Positions 6,141 through 24,804 of a stretch of DNA of 64,000 bases are shown here, in pieces. Within the stretch, counting starts at the first letter, position 1. Every line of letters begins with the position of its first letter. Origin of the DNA: Escherichia phage PECP20; sequence record OQ873415.1. One strand, given 5' to 3'. The notes under the pieces are model-generated. The model saw only the letters and a list, made by a program, of their open reading frames with translations, did not search any database and was not told the origin of the DNA. A program made the position numbers and the translations under genes.

Positions 6141-6611
6141 TTAATCATGTTTCCACACCCCATCGGTATTTGACCAAAGTCGCTGATTATCTGATCCTCG
6201 CCACAGCTTTTTGGTCGGAAGATTTTTCTCATACTTCCCATCAATAATAACATCAACATATTTAAGCATTTCTAGCTGTTTAATATCTTCAAACTTATAT
6301 CCTGTCCACAACCAAATGCTTTTATTGGGATAAAGATTTTTAATAGTTTGAACTACAGAGTGAATAACATCTCGGTTATCAGGATAGAGAGGGTCTCCTC
6401 CGGTTATAGTCAATCCTTCTATATAATCATTATTCAAACATTCAATTAATTGTTCTAGTGTTTCACCAGTGAATGGAATACCATTTCTAGCATTCCATGT
6501 TGATTTATTATAACACCCTTCGCATTTATGCAAACAACCTGTAACGAAAAGAACGACCCTGCAACCAGGGCCATTAACAAAATCGCAAGGATAAAATCTA
6601 TCATAATTCAT
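6141..6611 (-). CDS. nrdG: Anaerobic ribonucleotide reductase activating protein NrdG (radical SAM)
   Basis: N-terminal CLHKCEGC cluster (CxxxCxxC); 156 aa; directly downstream of nrdD. Confidence 0.9.
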   Translation of the reverse strand: MNYDRFYPCDFVNGPGCRVVLFVTGCLHKCEGCYNKSTWNARNGIPFTGETLEQLIECLNNDYIEGLTITGGDPLYPDNRDVIHSVVQTIKNLYPNKSIWLWTGYKFEDIKQLEMLKYVDVIIDGKYEKNLPTKKLWRGSDNQRLWSNTDGVWKHD

Positions 6612-8425
6612 TGGTGTTTAACCCTATGCATGATTTCTTTATTTTTACCGAGATTAAATCCGCGTTCGTTCGGATTTCCCAAATAACCGCATGTCCTTCT
6701 TATAGTGTTCATCTTTTTAGGATCAGTTTCTCCACAAACTGAACAAACAAATCCGTTTTCAGTAGGAGTCATTTCATGAGTACTTCCACACGTAAAACAT
6801 TTATCTACTGGCATATTAACACCAAAATAATCTAAATGTTGTGCAGCATAATCCCACACGGCCTCAAGACCTTTTAGGTTATTTTTCATATCAGGAAGTT
6901 CAACATAAGAAATGTGACCACCTGTCGCAATGAAATGATATGGCGCTTCACGAGAAATCTTTTCAAACGGAGTAATATTTTCTTCTACTGAAACGTGGAA
7001 ACTATTAGTGTACCAGCCTTTATCGGTAACATCTTTTACGCTTCCATATTTTTCTGTATCAAGTTTACAGAAACGATAACACAAGTTTTCAGCAGGAGTA
7101 GAATATAAACTAAAAGCAAATCCAGTTCTTTCGGTCCACTGTTTAAGATGAGCATTCATTTTAGTTAAAATTTCTTGCCCAATATCACGACCGACAAGAA
7201 TATTCAATTCGTGAATACCAATGTATCCCAAAGACACTGAACTTCTACCGTTTTTAAATAACTCAATTATATCGTCGTCAGGTTTAAGACGAACCCCAAA
7301 TGCACCTTCTTGGTAAAGAATAGGAGCAACAGTCGCTTTAACTCCTTTTAAGGAACTAATTCTACACATCAAGGCTTCAAAGCACAGATCCATTCGTTCA
7401 TTAAATAACTCAACAAATTTCTGTTCATTGAACTGTGTTCCAATATAAGAATCTAACGCGATGCGAGGAAGATTCAGTGTTACAACACCGAGATTATTAC
7501 GTCCATCAAGAATTTCATTACCAGTCGAATCTTTCCATACACTCAAGAAACTACGGCAACCCATTGGAGAAACTGGAACTGAAGAACCAGTAATAGCTTT
7601 ATTATTCTTAACCGAAATAATGTCAGGATACATTCTTTTGCTTGCACATTCTAACGCAAGTTGTTTAATATCATAGTTCGGATCATCTTTATAAAGATTA
7701 ACACCTTCTTCAACAAACATAACAAGTTTAGGAAAAATAGGAGTTATTCCATCACGACCAAGACCTTTAATCCGATTTTTCAGAATTGCTTTCTGAATCA
7801 TTCGTTCGGTCCAATCAGTTCCAGTACCAAATGTAATTGTTACAAAAGGCGTTTGCCCGTTTGAACTAAAAAGAGTATTTACCTCATACTCATAAGCTTG
7901 AAATGCGTCATATACATCTTTTTCTGTTTTAGATTGAGCATAATTCAGAATGTCTGGTATTTGCCATTTTTCTGCATCTTCAACATGTTTAGCGTATGTA
8001 CGTTTAACATAAGGAGAAAGAACTTTATCGACATTCGCAAATGTAGTTCCGCCGTACTGATGTGAAGCAACTTGTGCAGTAATTTGTGCCATAATTGCAG
8101 TAGCAACACCAATCGATTTAGGCGTTTCAATTTGAGCATTGCCCAATTTAAATCCGTTCTCAAGCATCCCCTTTAAATCGACTAAACAGCAATTGGTAAA
8201 CGGAAGAGCAGGAGAATAATCAATATCATGCATGTGGATAATTCCACTTTCATGCGCATTCATAATAAAAGACGGGACCATATTTTTGGCAATGTGCTTA
8301 GACACAATACCAGCCATAAGGTCCCGTTGAGTTGGAAAAACACGAGAATCTTTATTAGCATTCTCGTTCAAAAGATCTTTATTAGTTTTATAAATTAATC
8401 CTTCAATTTCTTTTTCAATTTTCAT
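6608..8425 (-). CDS. nrdD: Anaerobic ribonucleoside-triphosphate reductase NrdD (glycyl radical enzyme), uninterrupted
   Basis: 605 aa; C-terminal glycyl-radical motif RRTCGYLG and Zn-ribbon cysteines; same length as T4 NrdD; one continuous ORF, no intron. Confidence 0.95.
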   Translation of the reverse strand: MKIEKEIEGLIYKTNKDLLNENANKDSRVFPTQRDLMAGIVSKHIAKNMVPSFIMNAHESGIIHMHDIDYSPALPFTNCCLVDLKGMLENGFKLGNAQIETPKSIGVATAIMAQITAQVASHQYGGTTFANVDKVLSPYVKRTYAKHVEDAEKWQIPDILNYAQSKTEKDVYDAFQAYEYEVNTLFSSNGQTPFVTITFGTGTDWTERMIQKAILKNRIKGLGRDGITPIFPKLVMFVEEGVNLYKDDPNYDIKQLALECASKRMYPDIISVKNNKAITGSSVPVSPMGCRSFLSVWKDSTGNEILDGRNNLGVVTLNLPRIALDSYIGTQFNEQKFVELFNERMDLCFEALMCRISSLKGVKATVAPILYQEGAFGVRLKPDDDIIELFKNGRSSVSLGYIGIHELNILVGRDIGQEILTKMNAHLKQWTERTGFAFSLYSTPAENLCYRFCKLDTEKYGSVKDVTDKGWYTNSFHVSVEENITPFEKISREAPYHFIATGGHISYVELPDMKNNLKGLEAVWDYAAQHLDYFGVNMPVDKCFTCGSTHEMTPTENGFVCSVCGETDPKKMNTIRRTCGYLGNPNERGFNLGKNKEIMHRVKHQ

Positions 8426-22812: not shown

Positions 22813-23111
22813 TACTCTTTGAAAGGAATTAACTTTTTAACTGCTTTAGATACTTCGTCACGAACCTGATGGAAGTTCTTGAGCTGTTCAAGGCGTTGTT
22901 CGTAATACGCAATCTCATCTTCTTCAAGACAATCGTCAGCGTCTTCTTTCAGATATGCCTTGTACTCATTAAAGAGGGCCCATAGGCGGTTCTCAAAGTC
23001 ATCAAGGCTTTGAATTTTCTTGTGCTTCGGAACAAGGCCAAAAGGATTGCTTTCAGTTATGCGTCTAGATGCTTCATAATGAGTTCCAAAGCCTGATAGG
23101 ATTTGAGCCAT
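22812..23111 (-). CDS. Hypothetical protein (99 aa), vs.3 position
   Basis: ORF track. Confidence 0.45.
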
Positions 23112-23377
23112 TAGTATTTTTCCTCAGGTCGAAATACTGCACGACAGGCCCACATGCTGGCTTCTTTTAGATGTTGCTTAGCATACTTAAGAGCCTGTAC
23201 TGCATCCATATCTTCTTTGGTTTGTTGCTCTGTTTCATTTTCTTTCAAGATATATGCTTCTTCAATCAGAGCATCAAACAACAATCCAAGACGGACTTCT
23301 GCATCTTTAATAGCGTTCACTTTACCGATTTTATCGTCGGTATGTGGCTTGTAGCCTTTAATATCTTCAATCGACAT
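23111..23377 (-). CDS. Small protein at the T4 vs.4 position; candidate Acb2-like cyclic-oligonucleotide sponge
   Basis: Synteny (regB - vs.3 - this gene) and size (~88 aa); start at internal ATG with GAGGAA ribosome-binding site; identity not confirmed. Confidence 0.4.
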
Positions 23378-23591
23378 AAGGAATTTCCTCATCGGTGGCA
23401 AGGTCATATTCGACCAATTGGATAGGCTCATTAATACCATATCCACGTACAGTGATATCAGTTGCCGGATAGTTTCCAGTAATATCACCCATTCTAAATG
23501 CTTCAATGAATGATTGCTCGCCTGAGCAACTAAACCAGGCGGCAAAACATTTTAAAACATCTTCAGACCCTTCTATAATCAATTTAGCCAT
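23367..23591 (-). CDS. Hypothetical protein (74 aa)
   Basis: ORF track. Confidence 0.45.
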   Translation of the reverse strand: MAKLIIEGSEDVLKCFAAWFSCSGEQSFIEAFRMGDITGNYPATDITVRGYGINEPIQLVEYDLATDEEIPYVD

Positions 23592-23953
23592 TATAGACTC
23601 TCAGTAAAGGTACGAGCGATAACGTCACGCTGCTGTTCCGGAGTCAGAGAGTTAAAGCGAACTGCATAACCGGATACACGGATGGTCAGCTGCGGATATT
23701 TTTCCGGATGCTTAACTGCATCTTCCAGAGTTTCACGACGCAGAACATTAACGTTCAGGTGTTGACCACCTTCAATTTTAACTTTAGGTTGATGTTCAAT
23801 TTCAATTTCGCGGGCATGTAAACCGTAGAAAATTTCCGGGTCTACAATAGCGTCTTCTTTAAAAGTCTTAGAGACAATAATCCGGGCTTGAGTACCGTCT
23901 TCAAAATAAATAGTGCCTTTGTGTGTGCCTTCAAGAATTTGATATGCTTTCAT
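23591..23953 (-). CDS. Autonomous glycyl radical cofactor (GrcA/YfiD-like)
   Basis: C-terminal half ...[60 protein letters not shown] carries the glycyl-radical signature RVSGY and matches E. coli GrcA as I remember it. Confidence 0.8.
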
Positions 23954-23959
23954 ATAACC

Positions 23960-24268
23960 TCAATTAGAAAATAAATTTATCCAAGTTTTTTCTTTAATCA
24001 AAAATGGGTCGGAATTAAACGCCATTAAACTTTGAGTGATTAATCCCTTAAATGGCCCATCAATAAATTCCATTTTGAAATGCGGAATACTAGTCATCAA
24101 CCGTGCATTAGGAGCAGTACAAAGAACCTGCTGCCCTGCGAACGGACCTTTAGTCAAACGGTATCGTTTAGGTTTAAAATGGTAAATCTCGTAATTTTCT
24201 ACAAGAGCCCTTTTATTGCATACTGGGCTGTTATAACAATACTCAAAAACTTCAATAGTGGTCATCAT
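23960..24268 (-). CDS. Hypothetical protein (102 aa)
   Basis: ORF track. Confidence 0.45.
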   Translation of the reverse strand: MMTTIEVFEYCYNSPVCNKRALVENYEIYHFKPKRYRLTKGPFAGQQVLCTAPNARLMTSIPHFKMEFIDGPFKGLITQSLMAFNSDPFLIKEKTWINLFSN

Positions 24269-24804
24269 TGCATTCCAATCACAAAAAATTGAGGACGAGC
24301 ATTACCGCCGATGCAATATTTGCTTTTGCAACAGTGTTGGACTGTTTTAATATGTACATTGTAAATCTTATCCATATCAGGAGCTTTAATAGGCTCGTCA
24401 ATTATATACAGAATACGAGAAAGCGTTAATCCACGGAATTTAGAACCTTCATTGCCAATAAAACTACGAACAGAATCAGTAAATAAACGGAATCGAATAT
24501 CGTCGCTAGAATAACGAGAAAATTCTTTTTTAATGTTGCCAGCAGAAATTTTAGAATAAGCTGAAGTATTAGAAAGAACAATAACTGTTCCACCATCATA
24601 CAGCCAATTAACAGCAAAATTAGTTACTGCGGTCGATTTACCTGATTGTCGGCCGCCGTCTAAACGAAGTGTACAGTACTGCTTGAGTACGTCTTCAAAC
24701 GGTGGGATATAACCGTTCTTACAAATTTCTTCTACTCTAGCATCAGAATGGTGTGTAAAAGCATTCATCAGGGATAGATAAGGTCCAGTTAAAAATGTTC
24801 TCAT
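24265..24804 (-). CDS. Hypothetical P-loop protein (Walker A GGRQSGKST), 179 aa
   Basis: Walker A motif in the translation. Confidence 0.5.
   Translation of the reverse strand: MRTFLTGPYLSLMNAFTHHSDARVEEICKNGYIPPFEDVLKQYCTLRLDGGRQSGKSTAVTNFAVNWLYDGGTVIVLSNTSAYSKISAGNIKKEFSRYSSDDIRFRLFTDSVRSFIGNEGSKFRGLTLSRILYIIDEPIKAPDMDKIYNVHIKTVQHCCKSKYCIGGNARPQFFVIGMQ

Follow-up and report, generated by a model that had tools for sequence, protein, structure and literature searches.

Introduction

YfiD (GrcA) from Escherichia coli and Y06I from bacteriophage T4, both of about 14 kDa, are the sole spare-part proteins to have been validated (Andorfer et al. 2021, PMC8683613). The passage of that paper in which Wagner et al. 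2001 is cited states that the activase of pyruvate formate-lyase (PFL) puts a glycyl radical on T4 Y06I, and that Y06I forms a complex with oxygen-cleaved PFL, with restoration of activity. The T4 gene, vs.6, was listed with a Gly_radical match by Nolan et al. 2006 (PMC1524935), who counted it among 11 open reading frames (ORFs) of unknown function conserved in all five T4-like genomes compared. The present study concerns the counterpart of vs.6 in Escherichia phage PECP20, located at 23591-23953 on the minus strand of a 64,000-nucleotide (nt) stretch of record OQ873415.1, referred to below as the window. A preliminary description, made from the sequence alone, had proposed alignments of its product with E. 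coli GrcA and T4 Y06I and a nucleotide-level comparison with host grcA. The gene and its role are already known, and the spare-part reading is not a new proposal; the fresh point is that the 3' half of the gene is nearly identical in DNA to host grcA. Full-text searches, which did not cover Wagner et al. 2001 or the T4 genome review, found no mention of a DNA-level mosaic. We conclude that the Mosigvirus vs.6 orthologue is very probably a phage GrcA-type spare part, an old grcA homologue in which the 3' 175 nt have been replaced from the host.

Intragenic recombination between phage and host is reportedly known from cyanophage psbA and psbD, in work said to be that of Zeidner and colleagues in 2005 and of Sullivan and colleagues in 2006. 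Those genes are reportedly likewise phage copies of host metabolic genes that have exchanged segments with the host homologue, giving mosaics that track the host clade. The vs.6 case differs in protein and phage group, and what is exchanged there is always one block of 175 nt, which stops where homology stops.

Results and discussion

Comparison with T4 vs.6

The window comes from an RB69-like phage, a Mosigvirus. Over the 12 kb that surround the gene it was 98% identical to phages ATK47 and ATK48, and the gene itself was 99.4% identical to its counterpart in Shigella phage SHSML-52-1. The following features were assigned to it.

23591..23953, minus strand: vs.6 (Y06I) orthologue, a 120-residue stand-alone GrcA-type glycyl-radical protein (ORF, Pfam, phrog_1209, T4 synteny, 6owr_A)
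23776..23953, minus strand: phage-type 5' half, gene nt 1-178, codons 1-59, guanine-plus-cytosine (GC) content 36.5% (57/115 mismatches with E. coli grcA; profile comparison of the N-terminal half)
23601..23775, minus strand: host-like tract with the glycyl-radical domain, gene nt 179-353, codons 60/61-118, GC 48% (173/175 identical to E. coli grcA)
23669..23671, minus strand: codon of Gly95, the predicted radical glycine, equivalent to GrcA Gly102 and PflB Gly734 (position in RVSGYAV; PflB alignment)
23591..23600, minus strand: final 10 nt of the gene, with phage-type variants again at nt 354, 357, 358 and 360 (variable-site table)

The ORF consists of an ATG start, 120 codons in all and a stop, with a Shine-Dalgarno sequence, GAGG, 6 nt 5' of the ATG. 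The whole protein was covered by phrog_1209 of PHROGs (residues 1-120 on profile positions 1-121, E = 5e-63), and Pfam Gly_radical (PF01228) matched residues 60-101 (E = 2e-18; 67.2 bits, cut-off 22.2). The T4 vs.6 product (NP_049730, Y06I), annotated as autonomous glycyl radical cofactor GrcA, is encoded at the colinear position in T4; it has the same length as the window protein and was identical to it at 114/120 residues. Synteny was judged from the T4 map, the SHSML-52-1 map and a colinear blastn comparison of the window with T4, and the gene neighbours were those of T4, with vs.7 and vs.8 upstream and vs.5 and regB downstream, within the tk-denV-e block. A full-length profile match and a conserved position thus both place the gene in the phrog_1209/Y06I group. 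Within the vs.6/Y06I family it is unexceptional, and it is the positional orthologue of T4 vs.6. Homologues were present in 1514 phage records, hundreds of them annotated as GrcA.

The window gene and T4 vs.6 agree in length, in the slot between vs.7 and vs.5, and in their mosaic structure, the 3' tract resembling E. coli in both (182/185 identical in T4). They differ at six residues (T21I, A35S, I36F, H54P, K57T and R73H), at 19/178 nt of the 5' half, and in their flanks, which are 65-80% identical, the window being from a Mosigvirus and T4 being a Tequatrovirus.

The host-like tract of the T4 reference (NC_000866) has G218A (Arg73His), while the T4 record MT984581 was 100% identical to E. 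coli over 175 nt. The G218A difference would be either a stock-specific mutation or a sequencing difference.

Comparison with E. coli GrcA and PflB

The annotated chromosome NZ_CP023386 provided the E. coli GrcA reference, and BLASTP of the window protein against GrcA (WP_000627804) gave 74/100 identities. The preliminary description had given the C-terminal ~60 residues as apparently identical to GrcA and the N-terminal half as different. The first point held exactly, with identity no lower than stated there: residues 61-120 matched GrcA 68-127 at 60/60 positions, RVSGYAVRF included. The second was correct as to divergence, since the N-terminal half is about 27-33% identical to GrcA (roughly one third over residues 22-60), but this half is still a diverged homologue. 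When profiles of 11 phage and 10 host N-terminal halves, with the C-terminal domain removed, were aligned by hhalign, they matched with a probability of 97.7% (27% identity across 62 columns, E = 2.5e-12). This makes the gene a grcA homologue over its entire length, and not a foreign N-terminus joined to a host domain.

The top PDB match of the window protein was 6owr_A, the nuclear magnetic resonance structure of E. coli YfiD/GrcA (E = 2e-42), and the second was the PflB C-terminus; residues 57-120 align with PflB 696-759. With respect to the GrcA/YfiD family (TIGR04365, IPR011140), the protein has the expected size, the C-terminal PFL-type RVSGYAV domain and the N-terminal homology, and scored below the equivalog cut-off. 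Like E. coli GrcA (PDB 6OWR), it is a stand-alone 14-kDa glycyl-radical protein, and PflA and cleaved PflB are presumed to be its partners as well. Unlike GrcA, it is 7 residues shorter and is encoded by a lytic phage with phage expression signals, whereas the host gene uses a promoter regulated by FNR, ArcA and acid. With the PflB C-terminal domain (~696-759), the piece that GrcA-type proteins replace, it shares the fold element and RVSGYAVRF. PflB, however, is a 760-residue enzyme, of which the phage protein represents that one domain joined to a short N-terminal domain, and the PflB C-terminus differs at about one quarter of the positions. The window protein is not a full-length enzyme of the PFL/TdcE class, which is marked by a catalytic barrel of some 750-850 residues containing the active-site cysteines, as just the last ~64 model positions were matched and TIGR01255 gave 89.6 bits against a cut-off of 994.

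In many phage records this 120-residue protein is labelled 'pyruvate formate-lyase', '2-ketobutyrate formate-lyase' or even 'ribonucleotide reductase subunit', an over-annotation derived from the C-terminal domain alone.

A host-matched DNA tract within the gene

The final 185 nt of the gene differed from E. coli grcA at 5 positions (97.3% identity). The same segment of T4 vs.6 had 3 differences, and similarity collapsed just upstream of the tract. A maximum chi-square scan placed the breakpoint after gene nt 178, with 57/115 aligned mismatches to E. coli grcA upstream and 5/182 downstream, and the observed value was reached in 0/2000 permutations. Across the junction the GC content rose from 36.5% to 48%, the window mean being 37.7%. 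At the other end, homology to E. coli DNA ceased at the stop codon, where the TAA of the gene overlaps the ATG of vs.5 (TAATG), and the overlapping vs.5 start is probably what confines the host-like tract on its 3' side. The host-matched tract is a real and statistically solid evolutionary feature.

Cronobacter phage leN (Pseudotevenvirus) has the identical 60 residues, with 27/60 codons synonymously different from E. coli; the corresponding numbers of synonymous codon changes were 5 in the window and 2 in T4. Amino-acid conservation therefore does not explain the DNA match. The private changes of the window (nt 207 and 327) were absent from all 5426 E. coli genomes searched, none of which had an allele more than 97.3% identical, and so these mutations arose in the phage.

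Host specificity and direction of transfer

The tract was ranked against grcA of 81 host species. Over 185 nt, the window and T4 matched E. coli at 180-182 positions and a cryptic Escherichia species at 178-180. The next genus, represented by Citrobacter amalonaticus, reached 166-168 (about 90%), and all others were lower. In E. coli the tract is nearly monomorphic, with 5156/5432 records at least 99% identical to the common allele.

Between E. coli and Salmonella, grcA differed at 29/185 positions in the tract (156/185 identical) and at 31/199 positions upstream, giving 84% identity in both halves. Host grcA thus has no discontinuity, which indicates that the transfer went from host to phage. 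The host-like composition of the tract within an AT-rich phage gene was counted for the same direction.

Klebsiella phages

Seven Jiaodavirus genes were compared with ten distinct grcA tract alleles of the K. pneumoniae complex. The seven core tracts were identical to the K. pneumoniae-complex alleles at 161-167/173 positions and to E. coli at 144-151/173, and Klebsiella alleles were always the best match among more than 90 host sequences. The junction was at the same codon, Glu61, and the GC content of the tracts was 55-56%, versus 36.5% in the 5' half. From the E. coli-type and the Klebsiella-type tracts together it follows that host grcA has replaced the 3' half at least twice, from the genus infected.

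Host matching was also looked for in two phages outside these groups and was rejected in both. The tract of leN was identical to grcA of C. sakazakii and C. turicensis at 140-142/173 positions, and that of the Klebsiella Slopekvirus CPRSA to Klebsiella grcA at 149-151/185, neither of which is a match. These phages are thus unmatched in DNA even to their true host genus, which indicates that the protein match can be kept without DNA replacement.

Among the Jiaodaviruses the 5' half of vs.6 was invariant (0/178), while both flanking genes occurred in alternative versions. The vs.6 homologues of Klebsiella phages KPV15 (L084:1501-1862) and CPRSA (L086:1355-1719), at 362 and 365 nt, were frameshifted, each being annotated as two short coding sequences, and are either pseudogenes or sequencing errors; the genes of the other Jiaodaviruses were intact at 363 nt.

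Distribution and age of the tract

When the E. coli 175-nt tract was searched against the phage collection, 292 records had at least 99% identity (several of them 100%) and 350 had 95-99%, followed by 2 records at 90-95% and 107 at 80-90%, so that the distribution was bimodal. The 642 records with at least 95% identity were Tequatrovirus and Mosigvirus phages of E. coli and Shigella, some of them isolated on Yersinia or Salmonella. The 116-kb EC.W14-2, with a 100% E. coli-like tract, was considered as a third event in a T5-like phage and was rejected, as it is an incomplete Tequatrovirus.

Some records outside these groups also had grcA-like sequence. The 19-kb 'viral' contig IMGVR_UViG_2706794630_000006 carries a gene that agrees with Yersinia grcA at 169/185 positions and whose product has a GrcA N-terminus of bacterial type; it looks like host or prophage-flanking DNA, not a phage vs.6. 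The Vagococcus sp. WN89Y assembly and a 275-kb 'plasmid' of Klebsiella sp. WOUb02 carry typical enterobacterial chromosomal grcA, which suggests contamination or a misassigned replicon.

A site-by-site comparison was made of nine genes of Mosigvirus and Tequatrovirus type. The 5' halves of the two types had 17-20/178 differences, mostly fixed between the groups, while nt 179-353 had no fixed difference between them, only private changes. Within each group the rates of divergence of the two gene halves were similar. It follows that the split of the 5' halves is far older than the tract. Conversion from the host either took place in each lineage on its own or occurred once and was later passed between the lineages; that the shared segment ends where host homology ends favours the host as donor each time.

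Origin of the mosaic

Recombination in T4-type phages is very active and requires no more than about 50 bp of homology, as known from T4 recombination and marker-rescue work. A plausible mechanism is homologous recombination, which would have put an E. coli grcA allele into the 3' 175 nt in the Tequatrovirus and Mosigvirus lineages, a Klebsiella allele having entered Jiaodavirus independently in like manner. In each case a phage gene that was already grcA-like would have been patched from fragments of host DNA, with the end of homology setting the 3' limit of the replacement. Once in place, 175 identical bp would ease further exchange and lock the tract to the host allele, giving the bimodal distribution.

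It is possible, although we would not put it at quite an even chance, that the 3' half has been repeatedly re-templated on the grcA allele of the current host and that the tract is a standing substrate of T4 recombination. Ongoing, repeated conversion of this kind is plausible. If it occurs, the phage spare part stays matched to host PFL and PflA, and the bimodality is explained by lineages of two kinds, those locked to the host allele and those that drift until homology is under the threshold. Such conversion would be the second clear case of continuing intragenic conversion between a host and a lytic phage after cyanophage psbA, in the best genetic model system.

A single replacement from E. 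coli to phage, followed by spread between Tequatrovirus and Mosigvirus phages, would require two host events in all and no recurrence. We regard this as unlikely on balance, yet a substantial alternative. When the window is compared with T4, vs.6 stands out at 87-100% identity from flanks at 65-80%, a pattern that fits exchange between phages, and the region is visibly mosaic among Jiaodaviruses. The shared segment, however, begins and ends where host homology does, at nt 179 and about 10 nt short of the stop. With the host as donor each time this is expected, while under phage exchange it would be a coincidence.

We give little credence to one ancient acquisition in which constraint, through amino acids and codon usage or through an RNA element, kept the tract E. 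coli-like with no later recombination. In many hosts and phages the C-terminal 60 residues do not vary, grcA is highly expressed, and the near-monomorphic E. coli tract would agree with such constraint. Against it stand the 27 synonymous changes with which leN encodes the same residues, and the rates of change, since within groups the tract changes about as fast as the 5' half and between groups it has 0 fixed differences against 17-20. The Jiaodavirus tract, moreover, is Klebsiella-type, and a search at a permissive E-value found no Rfam family at 23000-24600.

Replacement from the host is an uncommonly clear example of host DNA being taken up as a patch by strictly lytic phages, at least two times, from two host genera and with the same end codon. 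Both T4 and E. coli lend themselves to manipulation and offer a convenient test system. Other genera keep the 60 residues at about 84% DNA identity, and conversion may be a neutral by-product of homology.

Predicted function

The preliminary description had proposed a spare glycyl-radical module for oxygen-damaged PFL, and this is supported by the published biochemistry of Y06I, which is 95% identical to the window protein. The comparison suggests that the window protein takes a radical from PflA and restores oxygen-cleaved PflB. On entry of oxygen into an anaerobically growing host, the glycyl radical at Gly734 of PflB reacts and the chain is cut there. The host activase PflA would then install a radical on phage Gly95, and the phage domain, an exact copy of the GrcA radical domain, would dock into the cleaved PflB core, which could again convert pyruvate to acetyl-CoA and formate. 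Phage shut-off of host expression would block induction of grcA, and the phage would thus supply the spare part. A benefit in vivo is plausible: production of adenosine triphosphate and acetyl-CoA may continue, and formate may serve as reductant for the phage's own NrdD.

PFL makes formate, the compound that class III ribonucleotide reductase uses as its reductant, and an indirect link of vs.6 to NrdD through formate is plausible. The preliminary description had the gene carried alongside nrdD and nrdG. Both genes are indeed in the window genome, but they lie about 15 kb away and do not form one operon with it.

6608..8425, minus strand: nrdD, anaerobic ribonucleotide reductase, a glycyl radical enzyme of 605 residues (Pfam NRDD E = 2.5e-171, Gly_radical E = 1.7e-25)
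6141..6611, minus strand: nrdG, radical-SAM activase of NrdD (Pfam Fer4_12 E = 7e-49, Radical_SAM)

A direct role, in which the protein replaces the oxygen-cleaved radical domain of NrdD and serves the phage ribonucleotide reductase rather than host PFL, is very improbable. It would accord with the nucleotide-metabolism role proposed for vs.6 by Nolan et al. 2006 (PMC1524935), with the presence of nrdD and nrdG in this window, and with Aeromonas phage ZPAH1, in which the homologue lies directly downstream of nrdD-nrdG. The radical domain, however, is identical to that of GrcA and nearest to PflB 696-759, and no NrdD family was present among the NCBIfam or PDB matches of the window protein. The domain is thus PFL/GrcA-type and not NrdD-type, which makes direct repair of NrdD unlikely. 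The ~15 kb between the gene and nrdD also speaks against this role, as does T4 Y06I, which the PFL activase activated and which restored PFL according to the cited passage of PMC8683613.

Least expected among the functional readings is that of a decoy that soaks up PflA or blocks PflB and so redirects host fermentation, to which we assign an extremely small chance. With the interaction surface copied exactly, the phage protein could be a competitor of host GrcA and PflB for the activase, but the effect of Y06I given in the same passage (PMC8683613) was restoration and not inhibition of PFL activity. An assembly artefact, with host reads built into a phage contig, is of negligible probability, as nothing besides the near-identity to host DNA speaks for it, while the same in-frame junction occurs in T4 and more than 600 independently sequenced phage genomes and the 3' end and overlapping vs.5 start are phage-type.

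Several points weigh against a host-patched spare part. The NCBIfam equivalog model of GrcA (TIGR04365) gave 158.6 bits, 11 bits short of its curated cut-off of 170, because the N-terminal half has diverged; T4 Y06I, with 151.1 bits, was also below the cut-off, and E. coli GrcA scored 233.9. No report of an in vivo benefit to any phage was found in the literature examined, and the function of the window protein is here predicted from sequence comparison. Tequatroviruses isolated on Yersinia keep the E. coli-type tract. Host matching was absent in Pseudotevenvirus, Slopekvirus, Krischvirus, T4-like IMG/VR contigs (L097-L100) and T5-like phages, whose homologues were 66-85% identical to any host tested (T5-like 66-75%). 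For continuing conversion the evidence within genera was weak. Third positions polymorphic both in the Jiaodavirus tracts and in the Klebsiella alleles numbered 9/17 (hypergeometric p = 0.014), which was rejected as a sign of continuing conversion, being too weak and open to explanation by mutational hot spots. For some pairs of Jiaodaviruses there were 0/178 differences in the 5' half versus up to 12/173 in the tract; this test of the tract as a hot spot was likewise rejected and is not relied on, since the flanks are mosaic between phages and the ungapped comparison of flanks is invalid wherever the adjacent genes are not the same.

Neighbouring genes and further observations

Counts of promoters and terminators around the vs.6 orthologue were no higher than in shuffled sequence. 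The gene that follows it was assigned as below.

23367..23591, minus strand: vs.5 orthologue, 74 residues, with a start-stop overlap with vs.6 (ORF; phrog_1986, E = 1e-38; T4 map)

The higher identity to T4 extends from vs.6 into the 3' end of vs.7 (window 23591-24070), a segment 85-100% identical to T4 in surroundings of 65-80%.

In Aeromonas phage ZPAH1 (L090:1-1714) the order is nrdD, nrdG and the grcA-like gene, then thioredoxin and glutaredoxin genes, which hints at co-expression with an anaerobic nucleotide-reduction module in some lineages.

A 2026 typing study (PMC12845203) picked grcA as a conserved marker for detecting Straboviridae by quantitative PCR. In its 3' part, phage grcA is 97-100% identical to the chromosomal gene of E. 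coli, and any primers sited there would amplify the host.

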